Shown one piece after another: positions 1,663 to 10,438 of a stretch of 28,906 nt of DNA. The stretch is taken from sequence record KM389305.1; one strand, written 5' to 3'. The translations under genes were made by a program, and so were the position numbers. The DNA is from Escherichia phage CBA6. The notes beneath the pieces are model-generated. The model searched no databases, had not been told where the DNA came from, and saw only the letters and a program-made list of their open reading frames with translations. Each line of letters begins with the position of its first letter. Positions within the stretch are counted from its first letter, which is position 1.

Positions 1663-3573
1663 ATGTCTAATATGATTGATATTGAACGAAAATACAAAAA
1701 GCTCACTCACATAGAGCATATCCTTCTTCGCCCAGAGCGTCATCTGGGCAGTATCCGTTCAGCCGTTGGAACGACTTGGATATATGATCCAATAAAAGAT
1801 CAAGTTATATTCAAGGATAATTTTGAATATTCTCCTGCATTGATTAAACAGTTTGATGAAATTATCACCAACTCTGTAGATCATAGCAAAACGCCAGAAG
1901 GTAAAAGCCTCACAGAAATCACCATTACCGTTTCTCCTATGAATGGTCAGATCATCGTGGCTGACAATGGGGGTATTCCGGTTGTTAAACACGGGGAGAC
2001 AAAGGAATGGCTCCCTGAGATGTTATTTGGCTCCCTCTATGCGGGTAGCAACTTCAACGACGACGATGAAGAATACAATAACAAAAAATCAGGTGGGCAG
2101 AACGGTGAAGGGGCTTCACTGGTCAACGTATTTTCAAAATGGTTCCGTGTCACGACAAATGACGGGAAGAAGTCTTACACTCAAACATTTGAAGACAATT
2201 TGAGCAAACGTTCTAATCCGGTGATCAGTAATTTGAATGCCCCTGGGACGTCTATCGCATGGATACCTGATTATGCGCGTCTGGGTGTCAAAGGTCTTGA
2301 TCAAAATAACTTGTTGATGATCTATCGCCGCGCATTTGAAGTGGCTGCTTGTAACCCGTGCCTGAAAGTCATTCTGAACGGGAAACAAATCCGTATCGAC
2401 CGCTTTGGCCATTTTGTGGATTACTTTTGCCAAGGTTCCTCTGTTGATGAAACAGAGGAGTGGTCTGTTGCTGTTGCTCCTTCGCAGGGGACGTTTGTTC
2501 ATGCATCATATGTGAACAGTATCGCCACCCATATCGGTGGTCCTCATGTGGATTACGTTGCTGATCAAATCGTGGCGGCTATTCGGCCTCAGCTGGAGAA
2601 GAAGTTCAAGACCGAACTGCGCCCAGCAATGATTAAGAACCATATGATGCTCTTCATTTCGGCGGATATCAACAATCCACGCTTTGATAGCCAAACCAAG
2701 GAGCGCATGACGACTCCTGTTAGCCAGTTTGGCACGACCTACAAGCCAAGCGAACGTCTGATTCGTAAGGCGCTGGAGTTTGTTGGTGCTGGTCTGTCTA
2801 AGGAACTAGCCTCCCTTCGTAACGATAAGGAAGACGAGGAGTTTGAGAAGGCCAAGAAGGATATCATCAAGCGGGACTATCGTGATATCGAAAAGTATCA
2901 CCCAGCCACCAAGCGTGGTGATCGCTCTAAGTGTATCCTGGTGCTGACCGAAGGTGATAGCGCCTCCAACCCCATCCTCAATGCTCGTAACACTGAGACC
3001 ATCGGGTTGTTCCCTCTACGTGGGAAGTCTATCAACTGTCGTAATGCTACCCGCAGCAAGATCATGGCGAACGAAGAGTTCAAGAACCTGTGTACGATAC
3101 ACGGTGGTGCAGTCCCTGGCCAGCCACTTGATACGAAGCGCTATCCGTTCACTTTAATCGCCACCGATGCGGACGATGACGGCATCCATATCCGTGGGCT
3201 TCTGATCAACTTGTATTGCACGTACTGGCCGGAATACGTCCGTCAGGGTAGGCTGAAGCTCCTGCGCACTCCTTTCCTTCGCCTGTGGGCGGGTAAGGAA
3301 ATGTATGAGTTCATGAACCAAGATGAATACAATGCATTCCTGAAGACCCCAGCGGCCAAGAAGATCACGAAGAAGAAATATCTGAAAGGGCTGGGTGGCA
3401 ACAGTACTGAAGATTTCAAACGTATTCTAAACAACCTTGATGCGTATACTACAACGGTCGTATTGGACGATGAGTATGAAACGGCGTTAAACAACGGATT
3501 CAGCGAAGCGGCATCTGATTACCGCAAGACCTGGTTCAGTGATGTCTGCCTGTTTGAATCTGAGGATGAATAA
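1663..3573 (+). CDS. gp39: DNA topoisomerase II large subunit (GyrB-like ATPase plus toprim), T4 gp39 and gp60 equivalents fused in one ORF
   Basis: 636 aa; GHKL-type motifs EIITNSVDHS and ADNGGIPV; toprim motifs LVLTEGDSASNP and IATDADDDGIHIRG. Confidence 0.9.
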   Translation: MSNMIDIERKYKKLTHIEHILLRPERHLGSIRSAVGTTWIYDPIKDQVIFKDNFEYSPALIKQFDEIITNSVDHSKTPEGKSLTEITITVSPMNGQIIVADNGGIPVVKHGETKEWLPEMLFGSLYAGSNFNDDDEEYNNKKSGGQNGEGASLVNVFSKWFRVTTNDGKKSYTQTFEDNLSKRSNPVISNLNAPGTSIAWIPDYARLGVKGLDQNNLLMIYRRAFEVAACNPCLKVILNGKQIRIDRFGHFVDYFCQGSSVDETEEWSVAVAPSQGTFVHASYVNSIATHIGGPHVDYVADQIVAAIRPQLEKKFKTELRPAMIKNHMMLFISADINNPRFDSQTKERMTTPVSQFGTTYKPSERLIRKALEFVGAGLSKELASLRNDKEDEEFEKAKKDIIKRDYRDIEKYHPATKRGDRSKCILVLTEGDSASNPILNARNTETIGLFPLRGKSINCRNATRSKIMANEEFKNLCTIHGGAVPGQPLDTKRYPFTLIATDADDDGIHIRGLLINLYCTYWPEYVRQGRLKLLRTPFLRLWAGKEMYEFMNQDEYNAFLKTPAAKKITKKKYLKGLGGNSTEDFKRILNNLDAYTTTVVLDDEYETALNNGFSEAASDYRKTWFSDVCLFESEDE

Positions 3574-5969: not shown

Positions 5970-6202
5970 ACGAATTATACGAATTTGAACGCGCATATGA
6001 ATCGGCTTCTGTTTCAGGATATATGCAACGTTTGTATCAAGAAATTTGCTTTCGTTTGATGTCGCGCGGGATATCTGTTAATCGTGTCATGTCACAACCA
6101 GACAGTTTTATTATTACACTCACCGACCATCGCCAGAATATGTGTATCATTCAGGTCAGTTGTGTCGACAACGAAATTATACAATGGAGACGTTACGCAT
6201 GA
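5966..6202 (+). CDS. hypothetical protein
   Basis: 78-aa ORF; start overlaps the upstream stop and its own stop overlaps the macro-domain start (ATGA), suggesting translational coupling. Confidence 0.4.
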   Translation: MNELYEFERAYESASVSGYMQRLYQEICFRLMSRGISVNRVMSQPDSFIITLTDHRQNMCIIQVSCVDNEIIQWRRYA

Positions 6203-6804
6203 CCACTTATATTATCACAAATGGCGATTTATTAAAAGCCGCCACGAGTTTCAATCTTATCAATGCCTTTGCTCACGGCGCAAATTGTTGGTCTGTAATG
6301 GGCGCGGGTATCGCCAATCACGTTCGATTGAATTTCCCAGAGATTTACCGCGCCGACCAATTAGATGAACGTGGTCCGGAACAGCGCTTGGGAAACATGT
6401 CCTATGCGTTTGATCATGACACTGGTGTCTGGGGATTCAATTTGTATACTCAATTTTACCCAGGTCCCAATGCTCGCATGCCATCTATCATTAGCTCAGT
6501 CCAGATCATGTTTGAACAAATTCATGATATCGTTGAAGCCAAAGCTGATGAAACTGTCTATGTTGGTTTGCCCGCCATCGGTTGTGGTATTGGTGGCTTG
6601 AATCTCACACATGTGGTGGGCCAGATTAACAAAATCGCCGAAACCATCTTTGAAGATACTCGCCGCCGCGTGGTCCCAGTATTCTATATTCGGGAAGGGG
6701 ATGGATTCGAAAAGGATTTACAAGAACTCTCTCAAATGATCGACTTTGGGATCTCGGTTGTTCCTAATGAAGAAGACGTCATCGAAGAGGAAAGCATCGG
6801 ATGA
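6199..6804 (+). CDS. macro-domain protein (ADP-ribose binding / ADP-ribosyl hydrolase family)
   Basis: Start at ATG 6199 in an ATGA overlap; motifs ITNGDLLKA, NAFAHGANCWSVMGAGIA and VYVGLPAIGCGIGG match the macro-domain signature. Confidence 0.55.
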   Translation: MTTYIITNGDLLKAATSFNLINAFAHGANCWSVMGAGIANHVRLNFPEIYRADQLDERGPEQRLGNMSYAFDHDTGVWGFNLYTQFYPGPNARMPSIISSVQIMFEQIHDIVEAKADETVYVGLPAIGCGIGGLNLTHVVGQINKIAETIFEDTRRRVVPVFYIREGDGFEKDLQELSQMIDFGISVVPNEEDVIEEESIG

Positions 6805-7844: not shown

Positions 7845-8135
7845 ATGTTCTTTGAAATTGTCGGGGTGATTACAACATGCGTCTTCGTCATTATAACTCT
7901 GAGTGTTGTGTATTATTCGTTTATTCATCCAATTTTTCAAGCCATTAGTATCGCACGTTGGCTTACAGCTTGCTCCTTGGCAACCGGAAATAAACCACCC
8001 ACCCTAAAGGAAAGATGGAGTTTCTTCAAATGGGGGTACGAAATCGGTGGAGTTAGGACAACCCGCTACTCCAACAATATTGGAGAATGGTATGGAATAG
8101 GCCGATGGAACCTTTTCAAATCTGATGAAGAATAA
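7845..8135 (+). CDS. small membrane protein
   Basis: GGGGG SD before the ATG; N-terminal hydrophobic segment VGVITTCVFVIITLSVVYY. Confidence 0.45.
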   Translation: MFFEIVGVITTCVFVIITLSVVYYSFIHPIFQAISIARWLTACSLATGNKPPTLKERWSFFKWGYEIGGVRTTRYSNNIGEWYGIGRWNLFKSDEE

Positions 8136-8155
8136 GCCCCGAAAGGGGCTTTTCT
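8135..8155 (+). terminator. rho-independent terminator
   Basis: AGCCCC-GAAA-GGGGCT stem-loop followed by TTTTCT immediately after the stop at 8133-8135. Confidence 0.65.
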
Positions 8156-8196: not shown

Positions 8197-8216
8197 GGGG
8201 TTTCCGATGAAACCCC
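8197..8216 (+). promoter_or_regulatory. hairpin sequestering the SD and start codon of the first gene of the 8207-10785 cassette
   Basis: GGGGTTTC-CGAT-GAAACCCC: perfect 8-bp stem whose left arm is the GGGG Shine-Dalgarno and whose loop and right arm contain the ATG at 8207. Confidence 0.45.
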
Positions 8217-8530
8217 GTCACTCGGACAATAGGATGAAAGAACAAGAAATCATTCAGCACTGTATCAGACTGGGAACATTAAAACCCCTATATCAGGCTT
8301 TGCGTTTTAATGCTATTAAGTTCAAGCCATTATCGAGAACTATTGCGACATTCTTTGCCATGCGTTCTGTTGGAAAAACGATTTTCTTTGAGCATGACAT
8401 TTATTTTTATACAAAGATTAATGGCGAAGATTTAGATAAAATGATTTTCGTGAACGACGACAAAAATATGAAGATAAAGGTGGAAAACGAATTGCGTAGA
8501 ATCAATGACTCTTTGAGGGGAATAATTTAA
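8207..8530 (+). CDS. hypothetical protein (first gene of cassette)
   Basis: 107-aa ORF with SD GGGGG; no recognisable motif. Confidence 0.45.
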   Translation: MKPRHSDNRMKEQEIIQHCIRLGTLKPLYQALRFNAIKFKPLSRTIATFFAMRSVGKTIFFEHDIYFYTKINGEDLDKMIFVNDDKNMKIKVENELRRINDSLRGII

Positions 8531-9192
8531 TGGAAATCGTTGTCTCTGTATCTGATTGTGAATTTGTGTACCGTGTCCTTCAAGGGGATGCACCTTTGCC
8601 GGAAAATAATCAAGAAGTGACATTGTTTTGGTCAGGCGGCGTGGATAGCACATACATGTTGGTTTGGTTATTATCGAAAGGTTATTCGGTTCATACTGTG
8701 TATTGCCATCTGGAAAATAATAATTTCAAATCCAAACGTGAGAATTGTGCGCGAAATAAAATTTATAATTGGATCAACAAGAATGCTCCGCTTCTTATGC
8801 ATCGTTGGACTCATCACCAAGAACCGATTAGTAGCATTCACGTGCCGGACGGCGGGTTTCGTGCGTGTTTAGCACAAGCCCCGATATGGTTATTAAACAC
8901 ACAATTTAAGGGCCGGAGTTTGCCTCCCACATACATATTGGCATATGTCAACGGGGACGACGCGATCCACTGGATCCCAGCTTTCAATAAGGTCATCGAA
9001 GGATACAATATGATGACAAGAGACGGGGAAAGGCCAATTGAAATTTTATATCCTTTGATTAGTCTCAAAAAATCATGGTTTTATCACCATATGTCTCCAA
9101 TACATGGTTTGATGACGTGGTGTGAAATGCCAATTTTGAGAAAAGACTGTAATTGCCCTGCATGTACCCGCCATCGCTATGAGTTATCATAG
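8530..9192 (+). CDS. PP-loop ATP pyrophosphatase, QueC-like (7-cyano-7-deazaguanine synthase family)
   Basis: PP-loop TLFWSGGVDSTYMLVWLL; C-terminal four-Cys cluster TWCEMPILRKDCNCPACTRHR matching the QueC zinc-site pattern; about 220 aa as in QueC. Confidence 0.55.
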   Translation: MEIVVSVSDCEFVYRVLQGDAPLPENNQEVTLFWSGGVDSTYMLVWLLSKGYSVHTVYCHLENNNFKSKRENCARNKIYNWINKNAPLLMHRWTHHQEPISSIHVPDGGFRACLAQAPIWLLNTQFKGRSLPPTYILAYVNGDDAIHWIPAFNKVIEGYNMMTRDGERPIEILYPLISLKKSWFYHHMSPIHGLMTWCEMPILRKDCNCPACTRHRYELS

Positions 9193-9205: not shown

Positions 9206-9547
9206 ATGAAACCATCTGTTGTGGTGAATGATATCACCATATTGATAAATCTGATCAAGGACATTTTCCCACAACAGGTGGATGTTGAGTATGTGGGAAA
9301 GAACGGGAAGTGCTATCAAGTCGCCCTGGTTCTCAAACACGTATATCCTCAGGCAGAGATTCATTACAGCCAGATTGAAGGGCATGTGTATACTCTTATC
9401 GACGGGAATTATTACGATATCGATGGTATCCATTTCAGTGTTCCTCCAGATACTTGTTTGTTGGATCACAACAGAGGCCATAAACCCCACCGCTGGCATA
9501 AAGGGTTTGTAGGCATCCCAATATTAGAATGGATGAGGAGGCCATAA
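9206..9547 (+). CDS. hypothetical protein
   Basis: 113-aa ORF; His-rich C-terminus [11 protein letters not shown]; no family assigned. Confidence 0.45.
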
Positions 9548-9548
9548 A

Positions 9549-10109
9549 ATGGCAGGAATTGTCAAGTACCTTGGTGACACTCACCTCGGGCATAAAAAAG
9601 TCTTTAAACCTCGTGGATTCGATACTCAAGAATCCCATGATGCTGCGGTTATAGACAGCATATTCCAAGGGCTGAAATCTCGGGATGTCCTTGAACTGGC
9701 GGGGGACATCTGCTTTATCGGCGCTGAGGGGTTCATACGCCTGATGCGCGAAGGAGCCAAGCGGAACATTGATGAGTTCAAGCGCCGCCCCGTTCCCGAT
9801 GAATGGCGTCCGAACTTTATCATCAGGGTGGCACAGGGCAACCACGACAGTTTCAAAATGTTAATGCGGTTGTATCTGGAGGGCTGGATTACATCCTTTG
9901 GTGCCATGTATGAGCGGGATACTTCTGTCGGTCGGATTCTGACTACACACGTTCCGTATCAATTAGATCGTTGGGCGTATAATATCCACGGACATCTTCA
10001 CGAAAAGATCCGCGAAGAACGTGAATATCTGAACTGCAGCTGGGAACAATTCAAACGACCTGTTACTCTAGCTGAATTGTTATACACAAATTTAGGAATC
10101 ATATTATGA
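9549..10109 (+). CDS. metallophosphoesterase (calcineurin-like, small MJ0936/YfcE-type phosphodiesterase)
   Basis: Metal-binding motifs in canonical order: [32 protein letters not shown]. Confidence 0.65.
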
Positions 10110-10438
10110 GAATATTCTTTCCTGGACAAAAGGTTCCCGAAGAAATAGAAAAGGTCGAGTTGTTCGGTTATAAAAGCGGTGATCCGTTCCTGCGATTTTC
10201 TTCACCATGTATTGTAAAGCGCAATCGCGACGGGCATTATGTGCGCCCAATCATTCTCATGGGTTCTGTCATGACGCTGAGAGCTAAAACGGATTCGGTT
10301 GTTATTACTGGAAGTCCCAACATACCCAATGGAAAGACTACGCTAAATTGCAAGCCTATCCTGTCGTCTTGGATGTTAATTGGATTTCTATCTGTAGTCC
10401 TGTCTTATCGTTACCTTACTGACTTGGGGATCTTATGA
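10106..10438 (+). CDS. hypothetical tail-anchored membrane protein
   Basis: ATGA overlap with the upstream gene; C-terminal hydrophobic helix [17 protein letters not shown]. Confidence 0.45.

Follow-up and report, generated by a model that had tools for sequence, protein, structure and literature searches.

The QueC-like gene and its locus

The window analyzed here, a stretch of 28,906 nucleotides (28.9 kb) of Escherichia phage CBA6 (sequence record KM389305.1), belongs to a Kuttervirus of the Ackermannviridae and carries a gene for a 220-amino-acid protein that resembles QueC, which an earlier note had singled out as an orphan without visible FolE, QueD, QueE, or DpdA partners (Table 1). Salmonella phages PS5, Mooltan, and Vi01 and Escherichia phage ECML-4 match the window at 99.2-99.5% identity, and in Vi01 it corresponds approximately to positions 6.8-36 kb. 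The open reading frame (ORF) is Vi01_023 in that phage and belongs to the family of ECML-4 YP_009101458 (PHROG 1550); its RefSeq label is "QueC-like queuosine biosynthesis", and elsewhere it is named "alpha hydrolase" or "hypothetical protein". The ECML-4 protein, which is 99.1% identical to that of the window, is the singleton "QueC-like" protein of Hutinet et al. 2019, who set aside phages with QueC singletons, this orthologue included (PMC6884629). The orphan status of the gene is already published in that work and the gene itself is already catalogued, and what our analysis adds is a test at the level of single residues, the extent of the clade and its confinement to phages, its coexistence with canonical QueC, and its genomic contexts. 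No characterization of the phage clade was found in the literature searched.

The gene is real and is under strong purifying selection. The PHROG 1550 profile matched the protein over its full length (E 1.5e-76), the protein was 99% identical in 23 phage records, and tblastn matched the gene in 195 phage records, the surrounding DNA being matched in 197. Against other Kutterviruses, the ratio of nonsynonymous to synonymous substitution rates (dN/dS) was ~0.03 at a dS of ~1.3, where synonymous sites are near saturation. A single mass-spectrometry spectrum of Sajous1 gp66 (99.5% identical) was reported from a CsCl-purified preparation (PMC10892097), demonstrating translation rather than a location in the virion. 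The start of the gene overlaps the stop of the upstream ORF (TAATG), which is not an obligate partner, because only part of the Kutterviruses carry it.

Table 1. Features of the QueC-like gene and its immediate surroundings, in window coordinates
Feature	Position	Strand	Basis or remark
Terminator-like hairpin, bidirectional	8134..8151		consensus scan only
Upstream small ORF, 107 aa, phrog_9302	8207..8530	+	translationally coupled to QueC-like gene
Shine-Dalgarno-like GAGGGG	8515..8520	+	9 nt 5' of ATG; read from sequence
QueC-like PP-loop ATPase gene	8530..9192	+	220 aa; ATG at 8530, stop 9190-9192 (ORF list)
PP-loop SGGVDST, ATP pyrophosphate-binding motif, aa 35-41	8632..8652	+	aligned to QueC S9-S14
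N63-N64-x2-K67-x3-E71 segment in place of QueC YxQxHxxE	8716..8742	+	family conservation; mapped to E. coli QueC
R111...Q116-A-P-x-W120 segment in place of QueC VPxRN	8860..8889	+	column counts
Y139-V-N-G-D143-D144-A-I-H-W148 segment	8944..8973	+	column counts; model confidence low at 140-143
P175-L-x4-K181 segment, equivalent to QueC P159...K165	9052..9072	+	P 35/36, K 36/36
Cys4 cluster C198-E199-x7-C207-x-C209-x2-C212, putative zinc ribbon	9121..9165	+	aligned to QueC

Placement in the QueC/Cap9 superfamily

Single-sequence searches detected the PP-loop only. BLASTP against E. coli QueC returned 12 identities in 30 positions around this motif, and the best Pfam match, QueC (PF06508), reached 24.5 bits against a threshold of 22 over residues 33-72 only, accompanied by weak PP-loop-level matches to tRNA_Me_trans and ThiI, while the curated QueC equivalog model TIGR00364 gave 18.6 bits against a cut-off of 150.3. 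Profile comparisons extended the match to the whole chain. The profile of 21 close relatives matched B. subtilis QueC (3BL5) over residues 27-214, and a profile of 36 diverse relatives, compared with the PDB, matched at full length QueC 3BL5 (E 3.5e-9), a second QueC structure, 2PG3 (E 1.6e-7), and Cap9 (9NTO, 9nto_B; E 7.6e-8), the compact protein-deazaguanylating ligase of type IV cyclic-oligonucleotide-based antiphage signaling systems (CBASS). Alignment by hhalign to the four canonical QueCs of E. coli, phage CAjan, and a pair of uncultivated phages covered 183 columns, including the Cys cluster, with a probability of 97.9% (E 3.5e-13). Other PP-loop families matched the profile only over the first ~35-60 residues (a few to ~110), leaving the C-terminal half and the Cys cluster unmatched. 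PAPS reductase, TilS, and NadE, named in the earlier note as competing placements, were ruled out, as neither profile nor fold matched them better than QueC or Cap9. On these comparisons, the 220-aa protein is classified as a full-length member of the QueC/Cap9 superfamily, with a predicted PP-loop Rossmann core and Cys4 ribbon; canonical QueC (E. coli b0444; B. subtilis 3BL5; PF06508 cluster 1 of Libby et al. 2026) has the same size and architecture.

Retained and replaced residues

Libby et al. 2026 gave the signature of canonical QueC as SGGxDS, YxQxHxxE, VPxRN, YPDC, K165, and C(x)8CxxCxxC, and reported that Y35A, R99A, Y131A, and Y189A each abolish queuosine formation in E. coli, Y131F being partly active (PMC13329287). 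In both Cap9 and QueC, the Tyr of YPDC stacks on 7-deazaguanine and the Asp reads it (Gao et al. 2026, PMC13279940). We mapped these columns in a joint alignment of 36 diverse phage family members and 4 canonical QueCs.

The two motifs from which the earlier note had recognized QueC were both borne out. The PP-loop near the N-terminus, SGGVDS, occupies residues 35-40 (nt 8632-8649) and is kept in 34-36 of the 36 family members. The four C-terminal cysteines, C198, C207, C209, and C212, align with C188, C197, C200, and C203 of QueC and are predicted to bind metal, although the window protein has one residue fewer between the second and third cysteines (C-x8-C-x-C-x2-C, compared with C-x8-C-x2-C-x2-C in QueC); most distant family members have the exact QueC spacing (CxxCxxC). 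Canonical QueC and the phage family also have in common E42, D127, P159, K165, and an aromatic residue at Y131. The PP-loop, E42, D127, P159, K165, and the four cysteines are retained in 35-36 of the 36 members, except for one Cys column (31/36).

Of the remaining canonical motifs, the phage family keeps neither YxQxHxxE nor VPxRN, and Y189 is replaced as well; the Asp and Cys of YPDC also appear to be lost. Within the segment replacing YxQxHxxE, the sole retained residue is E71 (QueC E42), present in every member, alongside an inserted, family-specific N63-N64 pair in at least 90% of them; the Y35 column holds I, L, V, or F, mostly aliphatic, and the Q37 and H39 columns are variable. Q116 stands at the position of R99 (Gln in 32 of 36 members), the N100 column is variable, and hhalign places both the Arg and the Asn of VPxRN in a gap. 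In the next segment, Y139 and D143 (QueC D127) are invariant, D144 and A145 occur in at least 90% of members, and W148, at the position of Y131, is Y, F, or W in 35 of the 36. The column of the YPDC Asp (D133) is variable, with Pro in the window protein, and that of the Cys (C134) holds Glu or Asp, alignments differing here by a few residues. Finally, Y189 is replaced by E199, a Glu in 35 of 36 members. Across the family, an aliphatic residue thus stands in for Y35, Gln for R99, and Glu for Y189, which are three of the four residues essential in E. coli QueC.

The family has near-invariant or invariant residues of its own (N63, N64, Y139, D144, and A145), which, judged by the secondary structure of the predicted model, sit in loops following the C-terminal ends of strands and at helix N-termini, in the active-site region of the fold. 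The motifs common to the wider family read WSGGxDST, NNxxKxxxE, QxPxW, GYVxxDDA, FPLxKxxK, and WCE...C(G)xCxxC. The zinc motif of Cap9 is CE(x)6CxxCxxC (PMC13329287), and "CE" after the first zinc cysteine is shared by Cap9 and the phage family, whereas QueC has "CY".

Residues 1-27 (nt 8530-8610) form an N-terminal extension that is kept in Ackermannviridae members (D9, F12, V13, V16, and N26) and is predicted with high confidence to be a helix ahead of the first strand. This extension is absent from most non-Ackermannviridae family members and may for that reason represent a lineage-specific interaction element.

The 7-deazaguanine pathway and the QueC-like protein

Canonical QueC is linked to queD, queE, folE, and, in phages, dpdA, whereas none of these accompanies the phage gene. 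In phage CAjan, used for comparison, the genes for DpdA, FolE, QueD, QueC, and QueE are all clustered. No GTP cyclohydrolase, QueD, QueE, or transglycosylase was found among the 208 annotated features of Vi01, and tblastn of CAjan DpdA, FolE, QueD, and QueE against the whole Vi01 genome and the window gave a best E of 0.13; the same search with CAjan QueC left the QueC-like gene unmatched even at E<=10. CxxxCxxC occurs just once in the window, within a shadow ORF of 100 aa that lies opposite the gene for the helicase. Searches with phmmer and CAjan queries likewise found no DpdA, FolE, QueD, or QueE within 10 kb of the gene in 79 viral loci. The absence of partners reported for the window was thus reproduced and extends to a whole genome, while the proposal that the pathway is split across the genome finds no support in the complete sequence of the near-identical Vi01, which lacks folE, queD, queE, and dpdA, or in the canonical deoxyguanosine (dG) of ViI DNA (PMC5889632). 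In that study, liquid chromatography-mass spectrometry (LC-MS) of ViI virion DNA resolved the four canonical nucleosides, dG among them, and one fifth peak, 5-(2-aminoethoxy)methyl-2'-deoxyuridine (5-NeOmdU), replacing ~40% of thymidines (PMC5889632).

Two uncultivated phage contigs encode a canonical QueC together with a QueC-like paralogue (2423-3220 and 10004-10759 in L026; 3428-4231 and 9998-10708 in L045). On both contigs the canonical QueC (Pfam 172.6 bits) lies ~6.5 kb upstream of the paralogue (Pfam 23.8 bits), and the two match each other at the PP-loop only. The canonical gene stands beside genes for ribonucleotide reductase, a gp32-like single-stranded DNA-binding protein, and RecA, the paralogue follows an SNF2 helicase, and the whole forms one replication/recombination module; the remaining 7-deazaguanine pathway genes were not found within 10 kb. 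Because two such different paralogues share one replication module, distinct functions of QueC and the paralogue can be argued.

The window protein shares with canonical QueC the SGGxDS PP-loop and the Cys4 motif, and departs from it in YxQxHxxE, VPxRN, Y189, the TIGR00364 threshold, and linkage to queD, queE, folE, or dpdA. It is very probably not an enzyme that makes preQ0 for the modification of DNA with 7-deazaguanines. The earlier statement that QueC in phages normally sits with its partners remains accurate for canonical QueC, and does not apply to the window protein, which is not a canonical QueC. Of the two explanations that had been offered for the orphan, action on a different substrate is the better reading, and it is indirectly supported by the full-length homology, by the replacement of most residues that contact 7-carboxy-7-deazaguanine (CDG), and by the coexistence with canonical QueC.

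A protein family of large phages

An exhaustive profile search of 1.84 billion cluster representatives (clusters at 50% identity) gave 1,420 matches at E<=1e-3, and 637 representatives at E<=1e-10 had the same motifs. Most family members are 190-300 aa long and matched over their full length; ten longer members (300-460 aa) showed no recognizable extra domain, apart from one weak helix-turn-helix below threshold. The contigs resemble large phages, with phiKZ-type structural proteins, topoisomerase II, and gp53-like baseplate proteins. Cultured carriers comprise the Ackermannviridae, the Ralstonia/Burkholderia jumbo phages RSL2, RSF1, and FLC8, the Pseudomonas jumbo phages PA1C, PS119XW, and Noxifer, and Erwinia, Vibrio, and Bacillus phages. 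A fold search of the viral BFVD returned only other uncharacterized or auto-named phage proteins, and two scans of 185,579 species genomes (one per prokaryotic species) revealed no cellular relatives among the matches listed, a weak negative given the degenerate PP-loop pattern used. The family is apparently restricted to large phages so far, and the 2026 survey of PF06508 does not discuss this phage group (PMC13329287). A supposed second paralogue in Serratia phage phiMAM1 (L020, 8738-9310) was rejected as a single-linkage artefact without a PP-loop.

The neighborhoods of the family were analyzed by clustering ORFs of 79 IMG/VR loci by single linkage. Outside the Ackermannviridae, the commonest neighbor was a helicase cluster, found in 29 of 45 dereplicated groups, in which single linkage merged SNF2-type with DnaB-type helicases. 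A family-B DNA polymerase lay directly downstream in 13 groups, a Nudix hydrolase was also a common neighbor, and topoisomerase II, RecA/UvsX, flap endonuclease (FEN), and an Mre11-Rad50 fusion were further ones. In the window, the QueC-like gene has the DexA exonuclease gene on one side and a phosphoesterase gene on the other, with topoisomerase II and dCMP deaminase encoded a few kb away. The literature searched offered nothing useful on expression timing in Kutterviruses.

Proposed activity and alternatives

We consider it probable that the protein is a working enzyme, belonging to a large branch of the QueC/Cap9 superfamily that so far comprises phage proteins only, and that it acts as an ATP-dependent adenylating ligase on another planar substrate rather than as a preQ0 synthase. 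In this mechanism, a compact PP-loop ATP pyrophosphatase domain would be capped by the putative zinc-binding Cys4 ribbon. By homology, SGGxDST would bind Mg-ATP, and a carboxylate or oxo group on the substrate would be adenylated, as suggested by the chemistry of PP-loop ATP pyrophosphatases and of QueC and Cap9; the acyl-adenylate would then react with a nitrogen nucleophile (amine or ammonia) to give an amide-type product, with release of AMP and PPi. The enzyme would act alone, as the product of an early or middle gene among genes for DNA replication and nucleotide metabolism. The alignment indicates that the predicted ATP/adenylation core (E71, D143, K181), the Cys4 ribbon, and the stacking aromatic W148 are retained, and that the residues with which QueC and Cap9 hold and convert CDG are swapped for the family set N63/N64, Q116, D144, and E199. 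The retained aromatic suggests a planar, base-like substrate, whose hydrogen-bonding edge would differ, given the loss of the guanine-reading Asp and the newly present Asn, Gln, Asp, and Glu. A protein this small, lacking nucleic-acid-binding domains, seems better suited to a small molecule, a nucleotide, or a flexible protein terminus than to tRNA or DNA. Most likely, the substrate would be another planar molecule resembling a nucleobase, whether a small molecule or nucleotide or, possibly, a group that becomes joined to a protein amine.

Several observations weigh against this interpretation. The hosts, Salmonella and E. coli, themselves produce CDG, so that missing phage-encoded partners alone do not exclude a CDG substrate. 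QatC also lacks the canonical motifs, yet some authors propose that it uses 7-deazaguanine (PMC13329287); given this precedent, motif loss alone does not exclude deazapurine chemistry, and the stacking aromatic of the Y131 column is kept in the phage family. Nucleoside analysis of ViI DNA by high-performance liquid chromatography with ultraviolet detection would miss rare modifications. Around the NN and DDA segments the alignments diverge by a few residues, and the predicted model is least confident at 140-143 and in the Cys region. The association with replication modules is absent in jumbo phages RSL2 and PS119XW, where the gene lies among hypothetical genes, and it is partly confounded by the shared ancestry of the uncultivated contigs.

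The leading alternative, although we regard it as unlikely, is that the protein is a Cap9/QatC-type ligase acting on proteins, or that it counteracts type IV CBASS or Qat immunity. Such an enzyme could place a nucleobase, from host-made CDG or a related carboxylate, on the N-terminal amine of a phage or host protein; as counter-defense, it could drain or mimic deazaguanylation chemistry and so blunt either immune system. The PADLOC QueC model (190 positions), which we take to represent the type IV CBASS ancillary protein, matches family members at full length with up to 62 bits, above the score of canonical phage QueC. Cap9 is also the best structural match, with "CE" after the first zinc cysteine and a compact size in common, orphan status is expected if the host supplies CDG, and small ORFs are often translationally coupled upstream of family genes. 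However, Cap9 keeps the CDG-binding motifs Y/FxQ(x)5E, RN, and YxDC and adjoins CD-NTase and Cap10, whereas the phage family has neither these motifs nor this context, as CD-NTase, Cap10/TGT (tRNA-guanine transglycosylase), and Qat genes were not found near family genes in the contexts examined. No universal partner gene emerged across the 79 loci either, the upstream ORFs belonging to many unrelated clusters and differing even among Kutterviruses. QatC retains the PP-loop and the Cys4 zinc site on a QueC fold with its CDG-recognition residues replaced, implying a non-canonical reaction (PMC13279940), but it measures ~400 aa, with essential N- and C-terminal extensions, motifs of its own, and an obligate partner, QatB, in a four-gene operon, none of which the 220-aa phage protein has. 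The PADLOC QatC model did not match the window protein and reached 13.6 bits at best in the family, and the Cap9 and QatC literature searched discusses no phage-encoded homologue.

Direct modification of an RNA or DNA base, as by ThiI, TilS, MnmA, or TtuA, or of a guanine nucleotide, as by YcfA, also seems improbable. Here a ring carbonyl would be adenylated and then aminated or thiolated, for instance on tRNA of the phage or the host, or as a DNA mark of low abundance. The weak Pfam matches to tRNA_Me_trans and ThiI, the position of the gene within replication modules, and the presence of SmpB and CCA-adding enzyme genes nearby on one family-bearing contig are consistent with this role. Against it, the protein is a bare catalytic domain of 190-220 aa without a THUMP, PUA, or other nucleic-acid-binding domain; families of the ThiI/TilS/MnmA/TtuA type align chiefly with the PP-loop region at the N-terminus, in contrast to QueC and Cap9, which match the whole chain, including the Cys4 ribbon; and the four C-terminal cysteines align with the zinc site of QueC rather than with the Fe-S ligands of TtuA/NcsA. 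Moreover, ViI DNA has no bulk modification besides 5-NeOmdU (PMC5889632), and the window contains no tRNA genes. That the protein is a true QueC, boosting host queuosine/preQ0 or feeding a 7-deazaguanine DNA pathway whose genes lie elsewhere or are too divergent, is very improbable despite database names such as "7-cyano-7-deazaguanine synthase", the supra-threshold Pfam match, and the PP-loop and Cys4 architecture, in view of the short Pfam match, the TIGR00364 score, the replaced essential residues, the missing partners, the canonical dG, the coexisting canonical QueC, the unmatched CAjan query, and the concurring view of Hutinet et al. 2019 on the orthologue in ECML-4 (PMC6884629).

The boldest reading would make the Kuttervirus protein the cultured representative of a third functional branch, carried by viruses, within the QueC/Cap9/QatC superfamily. 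This branch might perform a nucleobase-type ligation on a new acceptor (e.g., a phage or host protein amine, with a host deazapurine or planar carboxylate) or consume the precursor, as a counterpart or antagonist of CBASS/Qat deazaguanylation; we hold this to be a long shot. If the substrate were indeed tied to deazapurine-based immunity, a viral side would be added to that arms race.

QueC-family enzymes were long regarded as purely biosynthetic for queuosine and preQ0, until two bacterial immune systems were shown in 2025-2026 to repurpose them for protein modification. The phage branch comprises hundreds of 50%-identity clusters, is near-universal in the matching ViI-like genomes covered by our searches, and is routinely mis-annotated as "7-cyano-7-deazaguanine synthase". 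It represents a known enzyme family in a divergent, phage-restricted form and is not evidence for 7-deazaguanine DNA, and recognizing that it is no preQ0 synthase avoids false predictions of such DNA for therapeutically used phages. Because Kutterviruses infect tractable hosts, the protein is a clean target in the search for an ATP-dependent ligation that is new and serves replication of the phage or takeover of the host. As a well-defined protein it is of moderate interest, which would rise if it were linked to the newly found deazaguanylation chemistry.

Neighboring genes and other features

Upstream of the QueC-like gene, the hairpin of Table 1 is perfect (AAGCCCCGAAAGGGGCTT) and has T-runs on both strands, as a consensus match only. 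It follows a 96-aa membrane-like ORF (7845-8135) and precedes the small ORF to which the QueC-like gene is coupled, and it probably separates the putative QueC-like transcription unit from the genes upstream. The neighbors at 6142-6804, 9206-9547, 9549-10109, and 10106-10438 comprise two phosphatase/phosphoesterase genes (phrog_335 and phrog_547), a YunG-like gene (PF24591), and a DUF7618 gene. The YunG-like gene is kept directly 3' of the QueC-like gene in Kutterviruses. Vi01, PS5, and Mooltan have an extra 149-aa gene (Vi01_025, phrog_17979; 16392-16841 in L001) between the YunG-like and phosphoesterase genes, which is missing from the window (9547-9549), FrontPhageNews, and Guerrero, where the two flanking genes abut; Vi01_025 is a presence/absence polymorphism among 99%-identical phages.

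A link between the QueC-like gene and the thymidine hypermodification of ViI was considered and rejected, because the family also occurs in phiKZ-like and Ralstonia jumbo phages; neither pathway paper mentions the gene, and five other gene products suffice for the hypermodification in lysates (PMC5889632).

A fixed gene order was observed in L035, L047, L063, L076, and ~20 other IMG/VR loci, which belong to uncultivated phages rich in AT; some of the contigs span 150-330 kb. The order runs from an SNF2 helicase through a 120-aa ORF and the QueC-like gene to a family-B DNA polymerase of 1,230 aa, with a Nudix hydrolase further on, and translational coupling of these genes is frequent. The 120-aa ORF (cluster 2) is confined to this one phage group and has no Pfam or PHROG match, and the QueC-like protein of the group has a Lys/Glu-rich C-terminal tail. 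In the window, the cumulative GC skew peaks near 18 kb, at the switch from plus- to minus-strand genes (18269/18270).

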